Shown piece after piece: positions 4,016-63,051 of a stretch of DNA of 64,000 nucleotides. A program made the translations under genes and the position numbers. Numbering within the stretch: position 1 is the first letter of the stretch; every line of letters begins with the position of its first letter. The notes beneath the pieces are model-generated. The model saw only the letters and a program-made list of their open reading frames with translations. It was not told the DNA's origin and did no database searches. The stretch is from positions 148,218-212,217 of the forward strand of contig JACPSZ010000007.1 of NCBI GenBank assembly GCA_024860875.1, written 5' to 3'. This DNA is from Nitrososphaerota archaeon (GTDB taxonomy: Archaea > Thermoproteota > Nitrososphaeria > Nitrososphaerales > UBA57).

Positions 4016-4183
4016 GGTTCTGTTAACTCCTCAGGAGATCCGAGAATTGACTTCTGATAGACCTAAGGACCCAAAGTGTCAAGCATGTCTGTAGGGCCCC
4101 TATCGTTTTGACTAGGGCACCCCCCTCCTAGGGGGTATAAAAAGCGGATAAACGGGATCCCGAAGAGTTACCCGGGTCCGAAC
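4016..4183. repeat. MITE-like repeat element, copy 1 (imperfect terminal inverted repeats, GC-rich internal palindromes, internal TATA-like box)
   Basis: Aligns along its whole length with 14041..14195: ggttctgNtaactc...gagatccga...gacttctgata...gggcccctatcgtt...tagggc...gggggtataaaaagcg...gagttaNc. The left end ggttctgttaactcctcaggagatcc is inverted at the right end, gggatcccgaagagttacccgggtccgaac. Confidence 0.6.
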
Positions 4184-14040: not shown

Positions 14041-14195
14041 GGTTCTGATAACTCTTCGGGAGATCCGAAAGTCGACTTCTGATAAACCGAAAGACCCACC
14101 AATTATCTGTCTATAGGGGCCCCTATCGTTATCTAGGGCCCTAGAGGGGGGTATAAAAAGCGAATAATTGGATAACCCGGAGAGTTATCAGAGCC
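14041..14195. repeat. MITE-like repeat element, copy 2
   Basis: The ~26-bp terminal inverted repeats are ggttctgataactcttcgggagatcc (14041-14066) and the reverse complement of 14170-14195, ggctctgataactctccgggttatcc. Internal perfect palindromes are ataggggcccctat (14113-14126) and ctagggccctag (14133-14144). A TATA-like tataaaaag lies at 14152-14160. Confidence 0.65.
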
Positions 14196-17302: not shown

Positions 17303-17911
17303 ATGATGTCTGATCGACTAAATTTAATGCTCTTGGATAAAGTTCTGCCTACGTATCACTTTTATGTAAGACGTCAGATCGAAATTCAATCTACTCCGGG
17401 TCACGTTTTTGAAATTTTCAAAACTTTGAAACCAGCCGAGATTCCACTTTTTAATACTCTTTTTTGGATTCGGTCGATTCCGGGGCGATTGCTGGGTCAA
17501 GGCAACAAATATTTTGTGAATGACGATTCGTCGTTGGTGGAACAAGGTCTTCGGCTCGGATTTGTTATTTTGGATGAAGTCCCTGATAAGGAGATTGTCT
17601 TTGGAGCGATTGGGCAATGGTGGAAGCCGACCGGTGCTACCTTTTATCGGTTTTCGAGTTTGAAAGAATTCAGAGAGTTTGACCAGCCGGGATATGCACG
17701 GGTATGCGGGAATTTCTATGTCGACACTCAGACCCGTTCAGACGGATTAGTGCTTCTCACACATGAGACGCGTGTCGAAGCAGCAGATTCGACTGCCCAT
17801 GCCAAGTTCAAATTGTATTGGAGAGTGATATATCCCGGTGTTGCCTTGCTTCGAAGGATGTTGCTTGAGGCCATTAAAGTAAGAGCGGAAGCACTATCAT
17901 CCCGATTTTGA
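17303..17911 (+). CDS. Hypothetical protein, possibly a divergent SRPBCC-like fold
   Basis: 202-aa ORF lying between two SRPBCC genes. Only weak pattern similarity. Confidence 0.4.
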   Translation: MMSDRLNLMLLDKVLPTYHFYVRRQIEIQSTPGHVFEIFKTLKPAEIPLFNTLFWIRSIPGRLLGQGNKYFVNDDSSLVEQGLRLGFVILDEVPDKEIVFGAIGQWWKPTGATFYRFSSLKEFREFDQPGYARVCGNFYVDTQTRSDGLVLLTHETRVEAADSTAHAKFKLYWRVIYPGVALLRRMLLEAIKVRAEALSSRF

Positions 17912-17951
17912 CGTCTTATGGTTCTTAACGCTAGTTGATCGAGGCACTGGG

Positions 17952-37564: not shown

Positions 37565-38890
37565 GTGACATTGACTTCAGTCACTTTTTACGGCGGGGTC
37601 GGGGAGATAGGCGGTAACAAGATACTTGTCGAGGACAAGGGCACCAGAATATTTCTCGATTTTGGTATGTCGTTCAAGGCCGAAAAGACATTCTATTCCC
37701 CGCCATTTCTGTCGCCTAAAAGTGGAAATGCACTGATAGAGCTAGGCATACTTCCAAAAGTCGATGGCCTCTATGAATTCGATGATAGCAAGGCAAGCGT
37801 GGATGCAGTCTTCATTTCTCATGCTCATTTAGACCATTATGGCCATGTTTCAATGCTGAAAAGGGAAATCCCAATTTATTGCGGAGAAACTACTCGCACC
37901 ATAATCGAAGCATCTGCGATGACAAGGCAATCTAACTTCGAGTCAGACCTTGAAGGTATACAATGGAAGACCTTTAGGACTGGCAAAAAAATGAACGTAG
38001 ATTCTATTCAGGTTGAACCAATACACGTAGACCATTCAGTACCTGGAGCATACGGCTTCCTAGTTCACACTTCTTCTGGCACGATAGTCTATACTGGAGA
38101 CTTCAGGATGCATGGCCCCCGCAAAGACATGTCCGAAGAGTTCGTCGAAAAGGCTGCTGAAACTGATCCCATAGCGATATTGACGGAGGGTACAAACCTT
38201 ACTGGTGCAGAAATTTCGTCCGAAGCAGAAGTTTCTGATAAATTATCAAGGCTTGTAAAGGCTACAAAAGGAATAGTCCTTGCAGAATTTTCAAAGAGCG
38301 ACACTGATAGATTAACTTCGTTTTACAGCGCTGTAAAGAGCGGCTCAAGGTCATTGGCAATATCTATGCGGCAAGCGTACGTACTCAAAGCACTCGAAAA
38401 AGATCCCAAGCTTAAGCTTCCAAGGTTATCAGACAAAAATCTGCTGGTCTTCAGGAGGGCGAAGAAGAAGTACTATCCGTGGGAAAAGGAAGTTATGAAT
38501 GAGGCTAACGTTATCGATTCGGTAAAACTTTCGAAACTACAAAATGAAACGGTCCTTGTGACATCTCTTGCAGATTTTGAGGAACTGATAGAGATTAAGC
38601 CAGCATCAGGCAGTTGCTACGTTTTATCAGCATCGGAGCCCTTCAACGAAGAGATGGAGATAGATTTCGACAAACTCATGTCTTGGCTCGCCCATTACGG
38701 AATAGTTCAATATCACATTCACGTTTCTGGGCACATAATGCCCCTGCAGTTAAGAGAGGCGTTGCAGAAGATTGAAGCCAAAAAGATATACCCCATCCAT
38801 AACGAGCATCCAGAGCTCTTTGCAAAATTCGTTTCTGGCATGAAGAGCGAGGTCGTAGTGGCGGAGAAGGGAATGAATTACAAATTATAA
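37565..38890 (+). CDS. Archaeal RNase J-like beta-CASP ribonuclease
   Basis: 441 aa with a GTG start. Has GGVGEIGGNKILVE, ISHAHLDHYG, and the beta-CASP C-terminal motif HVSGH. Confidence 0.75.
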   Translation: MTLTSVTFYGGVGEIGGNKILVEDKGTRIFLDFGMSFKAEKTFYSPPFLSPKSGNALIELGILPKVDGLYEFDDSKASVDAVFISHAHLDHYGHVSMLKREIPIYCGETTRTIIEASAMTRQSNFESDLEGIQWKTFRTGKKMNVDSIQVEPIHVDHSVPGAYGFLVHTSSGTIVYTGDFRMHGPRKDMSEEFVEKAAETDPIAILTEGTNLTGAEISSEAEVSDKLSRLVKATKGIVLAEFSKSDTDRLTSFYSAVKSGSRSLAISMRQAYVLKALEKDPKLKLPRLSDKNLLVFRRAKKKYYPWEKEVMNEANVIDSVKLSKLQNETVLVTSLADFEELIEIKPASGSCYVLSASEPFNEEMEIDFDKLMSWLAHYGIVQYHIHVSGHIMPLQLREALQKIEAKKIYPIHNEHPELFAKFVSGMKSEVVVAEKGMNYKL

Positions 38891-38933
38891 GAAAAGTTAA
38901 CTAACCCCGAGCACTAGTTTTTGGTTTGCAGAA

Positions 38934-40638: not shown

Positions 40639-41664
40639 ATGATAGTAATTGATGGCTCTTATGGGGAAGGAGGAGGCCAGATTCTCCGCACAGCAGTAGG
40701 GCTTGCAGTGGCAACTGGACAAAGTATTGAGGTATTCAACATAAGAGCCAACAGACCTACTCCGGGATTGAAAGCTCAGCATTTGTGGGCTGTAAAGAGT
40801 GCCGCTGAACTGTGTGGGGGTAAAGTAGACGGTTTGAAGGAAGGCTCCAAGACGATAAAGTTTCAACCTAGCAAGCCTAAGAAGGAGCATCTGAAATTCG
40901 ACATTGGCACCGCTGGGAGTATAACGCTGTTACTGCAGGCTCTAATTCCTGCTATTTCGCTTCAAAATGGAGATTTCAGGTTCGATGTTAAAGGAGGGAC
41001 TGATGTAAAATGGAGTCCAACTCTCGATTATTTTAGGCGCATTGTAATACCGCTTTATTCGCAGCTGGGAATTGATGTTGCAATAGATGTCAGAAGGAGA
41101 GGATTTTATCCGGTTGGAGGGGGAGATGTTTCCTGCAAGATAACTGCAAGAGGTTCTTTGAACAATATTACATTGAAAGAAAAGGTCAGAGGCAAAACGA
41201 ACATAGCAAGCATCTGTTCAAATCTTCCGAAGAGCATAGCAGAAAGGCAACTCAAGGCTGCAGAGGATTTTCTCATTAAGAATAATATCGATATTGAAAG
41301 CAAGGAAGCAGCAGTTGAACCTGCAGTATCTCCCGGCTCTGCAATTTGCATTTACCATACTAAAGGGTCTTTCATCGGAGGGGACAGCATAGGAGAAAGG
41401 GGGAAACCTTCCGAAAAAGTTGGCCTTGAGGCTGCAAAATTCTTTTTTGACGAATATTCGTCTGACTGTACATTAGATAGCCATGTTGCGGATATGGTAG
41501 TTCCTCTTTTAGCATTGGCGAAGCATGAATCTGTCTTCATAACTTCAAAAAAGACGGAGCACCTTCTGACGAATTTGCATATTGCAAGAACCATAACAGG
41601 ATGCGAATATTCAGCGGAACAGCTCGACGGCGGGTCATTAATCATCCGAATAATCCCGAAATAA
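40639..41664 (+). CDS. rtcA: RNA 3'-terminal phosphate cyclase
   Basis: 341 aa. The pattern IDGSYGEGGGQILRTAVGLA and the overall sequence fit RtcA. Confidence 0.9.
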   Translation: MIVIDGSYGEGGGQILRTAVGLAVATGQSIEVFNIRANRPTPGLKAQHLWAVKSAAELCGGKVDGLKEGSKTIKFQPSKPKKEHLKFDIGTAGSITLLLQALIPAISLQNGDFRFDVKGGTDVKWSPTLDYFRRIVIPLYSQLGIDVAIDVRRRGFYPVGGGDVSCKITARGSLNNITLKEKVRGKTNIASICSNLPKSIAERQLKAAEDFLIKNNIDIESKEAAVEPAVSPGSAICIYHTKGSFIGGDSIGERGKPSEKVGLEAAKFFFDEYSSDCTLDSHVADMVVPLLALAKHESVFITSKKTEHLLTNLHIARTITGCEYSAEQLDGGSLIIRIIPK

Positions 41665-41707
41665 CTGCACAAGCCTAATTAAGCAATAGTAATTGGGGTA
41701 GTTCGAA

Positions 41708-45059: not shown

Positions 45060-45151
45060 GGGCCTGTAGCCTAGCATGGATAGGGCGTCGATCAAAGAGC
45101 GTAAGCCTTCGGAGCCGGAGGTCGTGGGTTCAAATCCCACCAGGCCCGCCA
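45060..45151 (+). tRNA. tRNA-Arg(UCG) with a 14-nt intron at non-canonical position 29/30; CCA encoded
   Basis: Hand fold: acceptor gggcctg/caggccc, D arm gcct..gggc, T arm gtggg-ttcaaat-cccac. Removing 45091..45104 (atcaaagagcgtaa) gives anticodon arm tcggc-cuucgga-gccgg. BHB geometry: central helix gcgu(45085-88)/gcgu(45099-102), with bulges cg|a and aa|g. Confidence 0.8.
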
Positions 45152-57342: not shown

Positions 57343-57449
57343 TGGGGCCGGTGGGATTTGAACCCACGAGCACCACCGTTCTGATCTAGCAGATCCCCAG
57401 GTTCACCGCTTTAGCTGTGGCATCCTGAACCAAGCTAGACGACGGCCCC
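57343..57449 (-). tRNA. tRNA-Pro(GGG) with two introns (15 nt at 30/31; 16 nt at canonical 37/38)
   Basis: Hand fold of the reverse complement: acceptor ggggccg/cggcccc, D arm gucu..ggau, T arm guggg-uucaaau-cccac, discriminator A, no CCA. Removing 57402..57416 (agcuaaagcggugaa) and 57379..57394 (aucugcuagaucagaa) gives anticodon arm ccacc-cuggggc-ggugg. Both introns fit BHB geometry. Confidence 0.8.
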
Positions 57450-58561: not shown

Positions 58562-58722
58562 CCCGCGGTAGCTCAGAGGATCCTAAAGTCCGAGAAACTT
58601 GGTAGAGCTTCCGATCTTCCTAAAGAAGAGGAGACGCTGTAGAAGCGGGCTCAGGCTCGTTCCACCAGCCTATCAAGCTAACAGATACCGGAGTGTCGTC
58701 GGTTCAAATCCGACCCGCGGGA
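58562..58722 (+). tRNA. tRNA-Tyr(GUA) with three introns (21 nt in the D-loop, 22 nt at 30/31, 44 nt at 37/38)
   Basis: Hand fold: acceptor cccgcgg/ccgcggg (C1-G72, the archaeal Tyr identity pair) with A73. T arm gucgg-uucaaau-ccgac. Removing 58577..58597, 58614..58635 and 58643..58686 gives a 74-nt tRNA with D arm gcuc-agcuuggua-gagc, anticodon arm uccgg-cuguaga-ccgga and variable loop guguc. Confidence 0.8.
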
Positions 58723-58730
58723 TCTCTAAA

Positions 58731-59081: not shown

Positions 59082-60295
59082 TTCAGAGCCTCCAGAATCT
59101 TCTTCCCTTCCTTCAGGAGAACCTTTCTAACCGATTCATCGATTCCTATACGTTCAAGTTTCTGATCTCCATCTTTTGTCGCTGTAATTATCATGGCAAA
59201 ATAAGGCAGAAACACTGCTGAAAACTGCTTCCTCGACGTTCCAAACATTGAGCCAAAAGTTCTACCTATCTGTGCAAAATATTTAGCCTCGTTCCATAAC
59301 CTTAACTTCAAATCCCATGGTATGGCATCATCATTGAACTGAACCTTGCACCCTTTGATCGCGTAGAACAGGCCCATCGCAAGCATTACATCGAAATATC
59401 TTAATTGGCGCCACTCCTGCGTCCTTTGAATCCTCCCAATTATCTGGTCTGCCCGCGAAACTGTATCCAAAGCATTTGAAAGGTGCTCTACATCGAGCGA
59501 ACTTGTAACCAGACTCGAGAAAACTGTTTCAATCTTGCCTTTGGGATCCATCTCTGCAGAGCTCAGAGCCATGAGCGCATCTGCAGGGTTAGAAGCGTCG
59601 AAGAGCTGTTGAAACGACTGACTGATCGTTGCACTTCTATCTCTTTCAGAAGACTCGAATTCTATCTTGAGCTGTCCAAGCACGGCCGCTTGCAGGTCAT
59701 TTATTGCAGACCTTACATCTCCCTTGGATTGAGCCACTACAGCTTGCATTGTTTTCTCGTCTAACTGCTTGCCTTCCTTGGCAAGAATTCCACGGAGGTA
59801 CAACTCCACAAGCCTTGGAGGTATCCTCTGAAAGCGGAAGGTTTCTGCTTTGTGGGCTATTTTTTTGATTTTAATATTGTCTTGAGCATTTGCTATCATG
59901 ACCAGAGGAACGGAAGTGTTCTCCATCAACTCCATGACGAAATCCATCCCTCCATAATCTGCCCTCCCAAAGATTCCGTCAACTTCGTCCAAGAGTATGA
60001 GCGACTTACCAATGAGAGCTTGATTGTAAACTGAAGGGCCAAGAGCTCTATCGAGTTTATCCTTTGTTCTAATGTCGCTGGCGTTGAGCTCTATGATGCT
60101 GTAAGAAAGCTCTCTTGCAACCGCATGCACAGTTGCTGTCTTTCCTATTCCCGGCGGTCCTACGAGCAGAGCAGCCTTTCCTCCAACCTTCCATGCCTTG
60201 AGCCATTTCAGAAATCCCAGTCTGGCTTCTTCGTTCCCAACAAGCATTGCTAATGACGAAGGTCTGTACTTCTCTGTCCACATCAGGCCCTTCAA
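59078..60295 (-). CDS. rfcL: Replication factor C large subunit
   Basis: 405 aa. Has WTEKYRP, the Walker A motif LLVGPPGIGKT, ELNASD and LLDEVD. Confidence 0.85.
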   Translation of the reverse strand: MKGLMWTEKYRPSSLAMLVGNEEARLGFLKWLKAWKVGGKAALLVGPPGIGKTATVHAVARELSYSIIELNASDIRTKDKLDRALGPSVYNQALIGKSLILLDEVDGIFGRADYGGMDFVMELMENTSVPLVMIANAQDNIKIKKIAHKAETFRFQRIPPRLVELYLRGILAKEGKQLDEKTMQAVVAQSKGDVRSAINDLQAAVLGQLKIEFESSERDRSATISQSFQQLFDASNPADALMALSSAEMDPKGKIETVFSSLVTSSLDVEHLSNALDTVSRADQIIGRIQRTQEWRQLRYFDVMLAMGLFYAIKGCKVQFNDDAIPWDLKLRLWNEAKYFAQIGRTFGSMFGTSRKQFSAVFLPYFAMIITATKDGDQKLERIGIDESVRKVLLKEGKKILEALK

Positions 60296-61143
60296 AATCT
60301 CAGAGCCCCTCCAAAGAGGAATGCAAGCAATCCAAGCATCATGCCCCCAAGAGCAAGTTTCTTCACCTTAATGGCTCCCTCAACCGAATAATTCCTAATT
60401 ATCTTGGCTGAAATGTAAATGAAGAATGCGTCTGTAACTAGCACGAGTACTGCATAAACGATACCCGTGATTCCTAACATCAACGGAAGTAAGCTGGTTG
60501 AAACTGCAGCGAGGAAGAACAGAGCTCCAATTCTTGAGGCCATCTTCTCCCCTTTAGTTATTGCGATTGATCGAACATCTCTTGCTTTATCGCCTTCGAC
60601 ATCAGATATTGTTTTGACTACTTCCCTTCCCGTCCCTGCCAAAAACGATGTCAGAGCAAGAGACCACAGCATGACATCGCTTCCCTTTCCAATTGCGACT
60701 CCGCCAAAAACATATGGGACTGCCATAGATGCTGCAACCATCATGTTTCCTGATAATCCTCGCTTTTTTCCCCAGTAGCTGTAACCCCAAGCTATCAGGC
60801 CGAAGAGAGCTGCAACCGCAATATTTGTTAGACTTATGAGAGATGCTGAAGCGAAACCGATCAGCAGAAGAACAGCTGCAAACATGTTAGCCTGCATCAA
60901 GCTCATAGTTCCGCTTGGAATGGGTCGATTAGGACTGTTAATCCTGTCAATCTCAATATCGTAAACATCATTGATGACCATAGAATAAGATGACACAAAG
61001 AATCCCGTGAAGAAGCCTAGCATTGACTCCAAAGACAATATCTTTGATGGTTCAACGACAGCAACCCCAACTATGACAGCGAAGCCAATCATGACGGAGT
61101 TTACAGGTCTTATCAGCGAAATCAGCGCTGACGCTTTTGCCAT
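60292..61143 (-). CDS. UbiA-family prenyltransferase, digeranylgeranylglyceryl phosphate synthase-like
   Basis: 283 aa with about 8 TM helices and the motif NDVYDIEIDRINSPNRPIPSG. Confidence 0.8.
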   Translation of the reverse strand: MAKASALISLIRPVNSVMIGFAVIVGVAVVEPSKILSLESMLGFFTGFFVSSYSMVINDVYDIEIDRINSPNRPIPSGTMSLMQANMFAAVLLLIGFASASLISLTNIAVAALFGLIAWGYSYWGKKRGLSGNMMVAASMAVPYVFGGVAIGKGSDVMLWSLALTSFLAGTGREVVKTISDVEGDKARDVRSIAITKGEKMASRIGALFFLAAVSTSLLPLMLGITGIVYAVLVLVTDAFFIYISAKIIRNYSVEGAIKVKKLALGGMMLGLLAFLFGGALRF

Positions 61144-61701
61144 TTAGGTCGGTCCCTGAAACCTTTCCTTGGCAACCTTGTAGTAGATTATCTCTCCCCT
61201 TCTCTCGACTACAGCAATTATAGGCGTCTTCCCCATTCTGGTTATCTGCGCAATGGATTTTGACAATGCAGTGATAGGAACTTCTGTACCTTCGTTCAAA
61301 CCAAAGATGACAAACTTTGCTGATTTAGTACCATGCTCTCCTCTATCGTAAACTCTGAAATCAACGCCAAAGCCAAAGCCCTCCTTTGGGACATATCCTC
61401 TAGAGCGTAAATCTCTGTAAAGCAGAAACCTAGTCCATGCATTAGCATCATTCTTCAAAGATCTTTCAACAAGATAATGAAAATCAAGTTTCTTCGCATC
61501 TTCCTTGATCTCAAGTTTAGCAATGTAAGCAAGGTAGAGCATTTCATAGTCCGCAAGTAATAATGAGGAATCTTCCTTCTTGCCATATCCTTTTGACTCC
61601 AGCAGAGCTACAATATTTTCATCTTCCACAAGAGCGCCTTTTGCTGTAAGTTTAGCAGAGATTACTTGCTCTATCTCTTCAGACATAGAACTTGCATTCA
61701 A
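61144..61701 (-). CDS. endA: tRNA-splicing endonuclease (catalytic subunit)
   Basis: 185 aa. Has LYRDLRSRGYVPKEGFGFGVDFRVYDRGEHG.KSAKF and a downstream Lys (RMGKTPIIAVV). This fits the Tyr/His/Lys catalytic pattern of EndA. Confidence 0.85.
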   Translation of the reverse strand: MNASSMSEEIEQVISAKLTAKGALVEDENIVALLESKGYGKKEDSSLLLADYEMLYLAYIAKLEIKEDAKKLDFHYLVERSLKNDANAWTRFLLYRDLRSRGYVPKEGFGFGVDFRVYDRGEHGTKSAKFVIFGLNEGTEVPITALSKSIAQITRMGKTPIIAVVERRGEIIYYKVAKERFQGPT

Positions 61702-61767
61702 ACATATCTTGCGATTTAAGGATTCTATGGTTAGGATTATTATAGGGAGTTAAGATCGTCAGATGCT

Positions 61768-62841
61768 ATGCCTAACTTCTTCGAAGAGAGGACAGTAAAA
61801 TGGGAAAAAGACAGAGTTGTAATGATAGACCAGTTGAAACTTCCAACACAGTTCCGCTATCTTCAATGTACAAACCATAACCAAGTTGCAGACGCTATAA
61901 AGAAGATGATCATAAGAGGGGCTCCAGCGATAGGCGTTGCAGCCGCTATGGCGCTGGCTCTGGCAGCTAAAAACAGCATGGCCAAGACTAAAGACGATTT
62001 TATCAATGACCTTAACGCTGCTGCAGAGGTAATTAGAGCTACCAGGCCTACGGGAGTCAACCTGTTCTGGGGCGTTAAGCAGATTCTGCAGAAGGCCCAA
62101 GCCTCTACATCGAACATCGAAACTCTGAAGGAGGAGATAGTTGCAGAGGCGAACAGGCTTGCCGATGAAGACGTGGGGTTCAATCGAAAAATAGGGTTCT
62201 ACGGCGCATCACTTCTAGAAGACGGCGACACAGTGCTGACCCACTGCAAATAGCCCAAAGGCTAGCAGAGTGCGGGCGCGCTGGCAACCGTCGGATACGG
62301 GACTGCCCTCGGAGTAGTTAGAGGGGCACGAGAGCAGGGAAAATGCATCAAGGTCATTGCAACGGAGACTAGGCCACATCTTCAGGGTGCAAGATTGACA
62401 GCGTATGAGTTGAAGGAAGATGGTTTTGATGTCACGCTAATAGCGGACACCATGGTCGGCTATGTAATGAAGAAAGGGCTTGTCGATAAGGTGATTACAG
62501 GCGCTGACAGGATTACGAGGGATGGCTATGTCTTTAATAAAATAGGAACCTATCAATTAAGCATACTTGCCAAGAGGCACGAAATACCGTTCTTCTGCGC
62601 TGCTCCAATATCATCCTTTGATCCTGAAAGGACTTTTGATCAAGTTGTTATAGAGGAGAGAAATGTTAAGGAGATTACCCATATAGGCGGGAAGAGGATA
62701 GCGCCAAAGGGCATTGCCATTTTTAATCCTGCATTTGATGCTACTCCTCCAGATTTGATTTCTGCGATAATTGCAAACTTTGGGATAATCGAGTCTCCTA
62801 TAGGCGAGAACTTGAGTAAGAAACTTCGTTTGGGTAAATGA
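61768..62841 (+). CDS. mtnA: Methylthioribose-1-phosphate / ribose-1,5-bisphosphate isomerase (eIF-2B alpha/beta/delta family), interrupted by a putative 21-nt BHB intron: join(61768..62249,62271..62841)
   Basis: ORFs 61768..62253 and 62395..62841 are in the same frame. The whole 62272-62394 stretch also reads as family sequence ([47 protein letters not shown]). N-terminal motifs are DQLKLP, RGAPAIGVAAA and RPTGVNLFW. Confidence 0.85.
62250..62270 (+). other. Putative bulge-helix-bulge intron within the mtnA-like mRNA
   Basis: The insert is atagcccaaaggctagcagag. The central helix is ctgc(62244-47)/gcag(62265-68), with 3-nt bulges aaa and agt and an inner hairpin tagcc-caaa-ggcta. Excision restores [10 protein letters not shown]. 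Confidence 0.65.
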
Positions 62842-63051
62842 GCTATTCTATACCAAGATTAGAACGCACACGCGCATGACTCCCCTGTATAGGGATACTA
62901 GACGCCCCTGCATGCAAAACTAGGACGGGGGGGACATATTGCCTCTTGATCTGCAAACTCTGGAGAAGTTCTATTAAGCTCTTTGCGTCAGAAAATTAGA
63001 GAAGCCTAACCGCCCAATAGGCAAGTTAGGCTACTGATGCACTATTATTCG

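Follow-up and report, generated by a model that had tools for sequence, protein, structure and literature searches.

In the archaeal gene mtnA, a stretch of 21 nucleotides (nt) carrying two in-frame stop codons lies within a single codon, that of Asn161. The gene is found in 64,000 nt of DNA from a Nitrososphaerota archaeon (GenBank assembly GCA_024860875.1, contig JACPSZ010000007.1, positions 148,218 to 212,217), which is called the window here. The insert is most probably a bulge-helix-bulge (BHB) intron, which would be spliced from the mtnA mRNA by a tRNA-splicing endonuclease of the EndA type. A rough probability of 0.88 can be given to this reading. Judged by its sequence and family matches, the host gene is mtnA, coding for S-methyl-5-thioribose-1-phosphate isomerase.

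Both the listing of open reading frames (ORFs) and direct reading of positions 61300-63000 show that the mtnA ORF opens at 61768 and closes at a TAG codon at 62251-53. This gives 161 amino acids ending in DGDTVLTHCK. A second TAG follows in the same frame at 62263-65, and the frame is open again from 62266. When exactly 62250-62270 is excised, the text becomes cac tgc aat gcg ggc, the protein continues as H-C-N-A-G-A-L-A-T, and a single ORF of 350 codons ends at 62841. The splice boundaries are unique, as moving both cuts by one base in either direction turns the Asn into Ser or Lys. These coordinates, the two TAG codons, the 21-nt excision and the 350-codon MtnA ORF had been proposed in an earlier sequence-only reading. 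All of them proved correct on direct reading, translation and comparison with family models.

The spliced protein of 350 amino acids scores 395.5 bits with TIGR00512 (salvage_mtnA, cutoff 279), 423.6 bits with PRK05720 (cutoff 271) and 307.6 bits with Pfam IF-2B. It reaches 444 bits with the archaeal equivalog PRK06036, which is under the cutoff of 528 for that model. The NCBIfam MtnA models span residues 8-344, and alignment with the solved MtnA-family structures 1t5o, 1t9k, 6a34 and 2yvk leaves no gap at the junction. The active-site segment THCNAG, near-invariant in 72 intronless homologues, is contiguous only once the intron has been removed. Cys160, which stands beside the interrupted codon, is conserved and would be the catalytic cysteine, as reported for MtnA of B. 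subtilis.

One explanation for such an insert is an artefact of assembly or sequencing, in which case the 21 nt would be absent from the real genome. The odds of this are close to nil. Four independently assembled runs (SRR12113431, SRR12113425, SRR12113419 and SRR12113385) agree in every base of the 61-nt region around the insert; their contigs are 99.9-100% identical to the window and each contain the same 161-residue ORF. Homologous inserts are also present in many unrelated metagenomes.

Relatives are interrupted at the same site. A protein cluster search with the 161-residue fragment as query returned many proteins of 161-167 amino acids with 47-100% identity. Nearly all such fragments stop straight after THC, with K, N, KWF, KWL or KWSSFH as their last residues, and this one codon is the end point of over 100 protein clusters from related Nitrososphaerota. 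A tree set of 240 homologous N-terminal sequences includes 110 interrupted proteins (THCK, THCN or THCKW.. before the stop) and 129 uninterrupted ones; the interrupted proteins make up most of the best 120 fragment matches. Judged from these sequences, the insert is an old feature that is widespread across the clade and not peculiar to this genome.

The corresponding loci were collected from JGI metagenomes with a degenerate DNA pattern that encoded G-D-x-[VI]-L-T-H-C and continued with AAN and TRR. Of the 91 loci obtained, 85 return to the motif AG[AS]LAT 19-44 nt downstream. There are 16 insert lengths (19, 21, 22, 23, 24, 26, 27, 28, 29, 31, 33, 38, 39, 40, 43 and 44 nt), most of which are not multiples of 3. 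Cutting in silico after the second base of each bulge restores an AAU or AAC codon for Asn, together with THCNAG, in all 85 loci.

These lengths bear on a second explanation, recoding, by which TAG would be read through or reassigned (for example to pyrrolysine) and MtnA would contain an insertion of seven amino acids. Such a reading is exceedingly unlikely. It draws on the fact that the 21-nt insert of the window stays in frame, yet inserts of 19, 22, 23, 28, 29, 31, 38, 40, 43 and 44 nt would shift the frame, and read-through therefore cannot rescue the protein. Moreover, TAG is the stop codon used most often in the window, where it closes 14 of 37 long ORFs (TGA closes 13 and TAA 10), and the added residues would split the near-invariant THCNAG.

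The insert and its flanks can be drawn as a BHB motif (Table 1). All nine pairs of the insert are Watson-Crick, and both 3-nt bulges are present on opposite strands. From base composition, the chance of nine Watson-Crick pairs at the register fixed by the alignment is about 0.25^9, or 4e-6. The improbability arises because the register was set beforehand by the protein alignment, not because the motif is rare.

Table 1. Coordinates of the interrupted mtnA gene, of its predicted splicing structure and of related genes in the window. A slash within a bulge or junction marks the predicted cut or join.
Feature	Position	Strand	Description
mtnA exon 1	61768..62249	+	Codons 1-160 and the first two bases (AA) of Asn161; ends V-L-T-H-C-aa
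mtnA intron, BHB-type (predicted)	62250..62270	+	21 nt, AUAGCCCAAAGGCUAGCAGAG; holds two in-frame TAG codons
mtnA exon 2	62271..62841	+	Opens with the third base of Asn161, then A-G-A-L-A-T; 189 codons; stop 62839-41
Predicted spliced mtnA junction	62249/62271	+	Reads ...CACTGCAA/TGCGGGCGCG...
Junction k-mers, mtnA			Predicted spliced GTGCTGACCCACTGCAATGCGGGCGCGCTGGC; unspliced CCACTGCAAATAGCCCAAAGGCTAGCAGAGTGCGG
Central helix, 5' strand CUGC	62244..62247	+	His wobble base and Cys codon; pairs with 62265-62268
5' bulge AA/A, 3 nt	62248..62250	+	Predicted cut after 62249
Intronic hairpin h' UAGCC-CAAA-GGCUA	62251..62264	+	62251-55 pairs with 62260-64; loop CAAA; five Watson-Crick pairs
Central helix, 3' strand GCAG	62265..62268	+	Within the intron
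3' bulge AG/U, 3 nt	62269..62271	+	Predicted cut after 62270; U62271 completes the Asn codon
Outer pairing, 5' half	62231..62242	+	CAGUGC 62231-36 and CCC 62240-42 pair with 62278-83 and 62274-76; A62243 unpaired
Outer pairing, 3' half	62274..62283	+	GGG, C, GCGCUG (BHB-constrained fold)
endA (tRNA-intron endonuclease)	61144..61686	-	TIGR00324 67.6 bits (cutoff 59.6); divergent from mtnA
UbiA	60292..61143	-	Block RFC(AAA)-UbiA-EndA divergent from mtnA; RFC-like AAA gene upstream of UbiA
tRNA-Arg(TCG)	45060-45151	+	One intron, 45091-45104
tRNA-Pro(GGG)	57343-57449	-	Two introns, 57416-57402 and 57394-57379
Probable tRNA-Tyr(GUA)	about 58562-58729	+	Three introns, read by hand

The same architecture is found in the homologues. 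Among 63 distinct sequences, all four pairs of the central helix (YUGY/GCRG) are formed in every case, the 5' bulge is always AA/A or AA/U, and the 3' bulge is always A[AGU]/Y. The inner hairpin has 2-9 stacked pairs and is divergent in sequence (UAGCC, UGGCU, UGACC, UGAGAG, UGAAUU, UAAUCUCC and others). It has at least four pairs in 62 of these 63 sequences and two pairs in the remaining one.

Pairing in the helices has been kept while the bases changed. For this comparison, pairs were counted in a trimmed, gap-free alignment of 52 distinct sequences and in 500 shuffles. Paired cells make up 99.1% (88.2% when shuffled), cells changed on both sides number 61 (17.8 when shuffled) and the covariation score is 0.494 (0.261 when shuffled). 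None of the 500 shuffles reached the observed values for pairing or covariation. If the partner strand is slid by 1-3 columns, pairing falls to 20-66%.

Compensatory exchanges affect four of the five inner-helix pairs, with GC, AU, UA and CG exchanging in pairs 2-5. The central helix is 100% paired, and its variation is confined to C-G/U-G and U-A/U-G. Little variation is expected there, because its 5' strand consists of the His wobble base and the Cys codon. The alignment of orthologues suggested by the sequence-only reading thus gave an insert at the same codon in 85 loci, with pairing maintained by compensatory changes.

A third explanation is programmed translational bypass, in which the ribosome would hop over the insert, as in gene 60 of phage T4, and no RNA would be spliced. 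A stop codon directly after the take-off region and a stable hairpin in the gap would suit such a mechanism. No matched pair of take-off and landing codons restores the frame, however, and landing at the sole downstream UGC (62271-73) would put the ribosome out of frame. What is conserved, across 16 gap lengths, is precisely what EndA recognises, and the host uses BHB splicing for its tRNAs. Bypass accordingly retains a slender chance.

The sequence downstream of the insert behaves as a working part of the gene. Exon 2 is intact, with 185-198 codons to its stop, in 68 of the 69 loci whose contig is long enough. Comparison of the window with three relatives gives a ratio of nonsynonymous to synonymous substitution rates (dN/dS) of 0.08-0.09 for this exon. 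Such values indicate that exon 2 is under strong purifying selection as a working coding sequence.

This evidence bears on the pseudogene explanation, by which a 21-nt insertion with stop codons inactivated mtnA and its BHB-like fold is coincidental. BHB-like motifs are equally frequent in shuffled sequence, and several of the homologous fragments are annotated as "hypothetical protein" by NCBI, both of which would fit a dead gene. A dead gene would nonetheless have to account for a break that keeps one codon phase throughout more than 100 protein clusters and 85 loci, among which amino acid identity has dropped to about 50%, for an exon 2 that is intact with a dN/dS of about 0.09, and for compensatory changes in the helices. 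It is very unlikely. Unrelated disruptions among orthologues had been named beforehand as a sign of a pseudogene; the relatives are broken at one codon phase and not at scattered lesions.

Alternatively, mtnA may be a split gene, whose two ORFs are translated separately and whose halves assemble into an active enzyme. Gene callers do predict two ORFs (161 and 148 amino acids) in every assembly. Exon 2 does not open with a start codon; the first in-frame one, at 62395, lies 41 codons in. Translation from there would drop a strictly conserved segment of exon 2 that is kept in all loci. Because no start codon precedes it, this segment can only come from joined exons. Separate translation also gives no reason for a conserved BHB motif with covariation, and it has a small likelihood.

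Several observations count against splicing. A relaxed BHB scan of the window, which asked for a 4-bp helix, 3-nt bulges and an adjoining inner helix of 4 bp or more and accepted G-U pairs, gives 2152 matches, compared with 2280 +/- 58 in dinucleotide shuffles. The unconstrained minimum free energy (MFE) fold of 62225-62295 (z = -0.8) is built on a competing pairing, and it is favoured over the BHB-constrained fold by only 1.1 kcal/mol. Among the homologues, the constrained fold comes within 1 kcal/mol of the MFE in just 25 of 65. Since the BHB motif is common by chance, single-sequence statistics were not counted as support. The proposal of a BHB intron was thus fragile when made from one sequence and has become strongly supported through the comparative data.

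A further point on the same side is that the metagenome pattern forced bases 2-4 of the intron to be TRR. This biases the first three 5'-strand positions of the inner helix and leaves their 3' partners free. The protein searches turned up neither a spliced transcript nor a junction-spanning protein; had such a transcript been assembled, it should have given a near-identical full-length protein. Finally, the EndA of the window may be either the alpha subunit of an alpha-beta pair or of the alpha4 type.

The outer helix, in which exon pairs with exon, adds to these points. The pair -7:+2, which would directly close the 3' bulge, is formed in 0 of 65 sequences, as the A at -7, which is A62243 in the window and the second base of the His codon, is unpaired. 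Beyond this A, base pairs join the region of the Thr codon to the Ala/Gly codons (as CGC/GCG or CCC/GGG) and the V-L codons to the G-A-L codons. The exon-exon pairing consists of 3 bp plus 6-8 bp. In the 8-bp helix between the V-L and G-A-L codons, 78.7% of cells are paired in intron-bearing genes, compared with 32-68% when the partner is slid. The mean number of pairs formed, out of eight, is 6.29 in intron-bearing genes; it falls to 4.56 in the homologues that lack the intron (72 sequences) and to 2.92 in the archaeal homologues without it (12 sequences). Column shuffles of this helix pair nearly as well (76.4%), and there is little covariation. For that reason the signal represents conserved codon choice and not covariation.

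The first base of exon 2, at 62271 in the window, completes both the Asn codon and the 3' bulge. It is U in 82 of 86 carriers, compared with 26 of 72 intronless genes. This preference suggests that the splice site constrains the base, or that it may pair with the A left unpaired at -7. Both the preference and the richer exon-exon pairing of intron-bearing genes speak for the intron. As far as the alignments allow, the motif is better described as a near-canonical or relaxed BHB than as a strict hBHBh', with apparent selection on synonymous sites; this is the weaker part of the case. The sequence-only reading had called the structure "textbook". That description holds for both bulges and for the central helix and inner hairpin, whose nine pairs are all Watson-Crick, and fails for the exonic helix, which is offset by the unpaired A62243.

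The window also encodes the endonuclease, and holds the usual substrates, for this kind of splicing. Pfam tRNA_int_endo_N and tRNA_int_endo both match the endA ORF, and the nearest solved structures are those of M. jannaschii (1a79) and M. kandleri (5x89). Three tRNA genes lie in the window, all of them interrupted by short BHB introns, several at non-canonical positions. No tRNA was found in the window by Rfam at its gathering threshold, and default ARAGORN gave one odd match only; the genes were recovered through intron-aware or intron-removal runs. Their introns number one (Arg), two (Pro) and three (Tyr, by hand), in agreement with the six that had been counted earlier.

In tRNA-Arg and tRNA-Pro, cutting after the second bulge base yields normal cloverleaf tRNAs. 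The cut rule proposed for mtnA is thereby calibrated within this genome, and the same rule restores THCNAG in the 85 loci, all in silico. Archaeal tRNA genes with BHB introns, including non-canonical and multiple ones, were reportedly described by Marck and Grosjean in 2003. The tRNA-Arg and tRNA-Pro introns share with the mtnA intron their geometry, their cut rule and a similar size (14-16 nt, compared with 21 nt in mtnA), as well as similar A-rich loops (..AAAG..). They differ in that the mtnA intron would be an mRNA substrate with no tRNA body, and its exonic helix is built from codons and offset by one unpaired A.

The A-rich loops of the tRNA and mtnA intron hairpins are alike at 45092-45098, 57415-57408, 58615-58629 and 62251-62264 (UCAAAGA, GCUAAAGC, UCUUCCUAAAGAAGA and UAGCCCAAAGGCUA). 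Their similarity might reflect a common origin, or a shared feature of recognition or stability.

From these data a mechanism can be proposed. In the pre-mRNA, the CUGC at the end of exon 1 would pair with the GCAG in the 3' part of the intron to form a central helix of 4 bp. This helix would be flanked by the two 3-nt bulges on opposite strands. The intronic hairpin would close the 5' bulge, and the exon-exon pairing would loosely close the 3' bulge. EndA, encoded next door, would then cut each bulge behind its second nucleotide, and the exons would be joined by an RNA ligase, presumably RtcB as in known archaea, to give CAC UGC AAU GCG GGC. The excised intron would probably be circularised. 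Full-length MtnA would be made from spliced mRNA only, and translation of the unspliced mRNA would terminate one codon into the intron.

Introns excised by the tRNA-splicing endonuclease are familiar from archaeal tRNA and rRNA. In a coding sequence, the nearest case is the intron in cbf5 of Crenarchaeota (Watanabe et al. 2002; Yoshinari et al. 2006; Yokobori et al. 2009, PMC2738675). As of 2020, cbf5 was the only additional BHB intron reported in archaeal mRNA (Schwarz et al. 2020, PMC7714728). Introns have been predicted in other genes, and none of these was confirmed (Yokobori et al. 2009, PMC2738675). The view that cbf5 is essentially the sole established case in archaeal coding mRNA, on which the sequence-only reading relied, holds in the literature searched (PMC7714728). 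A report of an mtnA intron was not found in the open-access literature searched, and one may exist outside open access. With mechanism known and host gene and phylum new, mtnA would, on the sequence evidence, be the second coding-sequence host after cbf5, and its comparative support is unusually extensive.

Both introns are short and break an ORF, and both have a BHB motif at the exon-intron boundaries and are presumably removed by the tRNA-splicing endonuclease. Both are carried by TACK lineages, described with the broad-specificity (alpha-beta)2 EndA (PMC5829648). Thaumarchaeota carry this (alpha-beta)2 type, one of only two that cut relaxed BHB motifs (Kaneta et al. 2018, PMC5829648). Both introns are patchy among relatives, implying gain and loss, and the cbf5 intron has likewise been missed by annotation or its gene called frameshifted (PMC2738675).

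The two cases also differ. The product of cbf5 is an RNA pseudouridine synthase, whereas mtnA encodes a metabolic enzyme. The cbf5 intron belongs to Crenarchaeota and was reported absent in Cenarchaeum and Nitrosopumilus (PMC2738675); the mtnA intron belongs to Nitrososphaerota/Thaumarchaeota. Unlike that of cbf5, it falls within a codon beside a conserved cysteine, Cys160. Splicing of cbf5 has been confirmed experimentally, whereas that of mtnA is deduced from sequence.

Another archaeal example is the BHB intron in the 5' untranslated region of the Haloferax volcanii HVO_1309 mRNA (Schwarz et al. 2020, PMC7714728). There the archaeal splicing endonuclease acts on an mRNA, beyond tRNA and rRNA, as it would on mtnA. 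Unlike the mtnA intron, the HVO_1309 intron lies in an untranslated leader of a euryarchaeon and leaves the frame unbroken, and its processing was demonstrated in vitro and by endA knock-down (PMC7714728).

If mtnA is spliced as proposed, EndA-type mRNA splicing is no curiosity of a single gene, as it would have a second coding host gene in another phylum, at least 100 sequence clusters and clear covariation. A more distant parallel is found in eukaryotes. The HAC1/XBP1 mRNA undergoes non-conventional cytoplasmic splicing by Ire1 and the tRNA ligase RtcB/Trl1. In that system, as would be the case for mtnA, a short coding intron is cut out by a protein endonuclease acting on stem-loops, a tRNA ligase joins the exons, and the protein product is altered. 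It differs in using Ire1 and another RNA motif, and its splicing is regulated by stress; no regulation is evident for mtnA.

Carriers of the interrupted gene are unevenly distributed. In a rough neighbour-joining tree of the N-terminal 160 residues, built from the 110 interrupted and 129 uninterrupted proteins, interrupted mtnA falls mostly in a few large neighbouring clades, and one large uninterrupted clade is also present. The tree needs at least five changes of state; for example, the intronless proteins P0001 and P0002 are nested among carriers. The MtnA matches of Nitrososphaera and Nitrosothermus are uninterrupted. Carriers with a source label are given as Nitrososphaerales archaeon, Candidatus Methylarchaceae archaeon or plain archaeon. 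A profile scan of genome contigs with the N-terminal alignment served as a control, and among the matches listed, which are mostly bacterial loci, all are uninterrupted.

One member of the lineage reading THCKWF (P0379, in the cluster of P0221; loci L085, L096, L143 and others) comes from Tara ocean data. Carriers are thus not confined to the habitat of the window DNA.

Close relatives with an unbroken gene were also sought. With the spliced protein as query, the only homologues found are uninterrupted; they are at most 62% identical and come from Nitrososphaerales/Nitrososphaerota metagenome-assembled genomes. For the window and THCKWF lineages, no uninterrupted protein more than 62-63% identical was found among 5.8 billion clusters, which was counted as support for the intron. 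The two top matches of the THCKWF-lineage search are a duplication artefact and a 63%-identical intronless homologue. When spliced translations were compared with the full-length proteins collected, none exceeded 67% identity.

The position of endA next to mtnA recurs in other genomes. Among the 60 intron-bearing loci whose contig reaches far enough upstream, 51 have endA as the divergent upstream neighbour, and identity between the EndA proteins can then be as low as 27-30%. The order RFC-UbiA-EndA, divergent from MtnA, is conserved in these 51 loci and recurs in one intronless relative (P0070, L178). In two further intronless relatives mtnA lies beside SBDS and exosome genes, and in an intronless Bathyarchaeia locus (L006) endA is directly downstream of mtnA on the same strand. 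The adjacency was considered as evidence for the intron and rejected, since the arrangement is shared by intronless P0070/L178. Gene order in these loci indicates that the linkage is older than the intron or independent of it.

A bolder proposal is that the intron acts as an ancient, clade-wide checkpoint that makes MtnA synthesis depend on EndA activity. It is suggested by the divergent promoter region that endA and mtnA share in most carriers, by the end of the unspliced reading frame within a few codons of the conserved Cys160, and by synonymous sites of both exons that appear shaped to hold the splice structure. The proposal is doubtful. If it were true, splicing efficiency would couple methionine and S-adenosylmethionine salvage to the state of the tRNA-processing machinery, and gene expression throughout a major archaeal phylum would routinely involve mRNA splicing that depends on EndA.

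Substrates for in vitro studies. With lengths of 19-44 nt and a single shared site, the 55 distinct introns would form a substrate series for the recognition of non-tRNA RNA by broad-specificity EndA.

Genome annotation. Pipelines break mtnA into two fragments, label it hypothetical or score it as a pseudogene, so that the capacity for methionine salvage would be under-called in these uncultured Nitrososphaerota.

Split ORFs bridged by a BHB motif were also looked for elsewhere in the window. There are 17 further matches, all of which look like boundaries between neighbouring genes. They include 17879-17924, 38876-38928 and 41650-41701 on the + strand, and 59124-59065, 43584-43525, 7247-7169, 6732-6663, 5907-5875, 3249-3191 and 1484-1440 on the - strand, among others. 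In the three inspected closely (38889, 41650 and 59124), a Met stands 1-4 residues past the junction. These motifs are probably chance matches.

A repeat of about 65-75 nt, 84% identical between its copies, is present at 4080-4155 and 14100-14165 on the + strand. It contains a palindrome, UAGGGGCCCCUA, and a conserved tail, GGGGGTATAAAAAGCG, that resembles a TATA box, and it may be a repeated promoter or a small mobile element.

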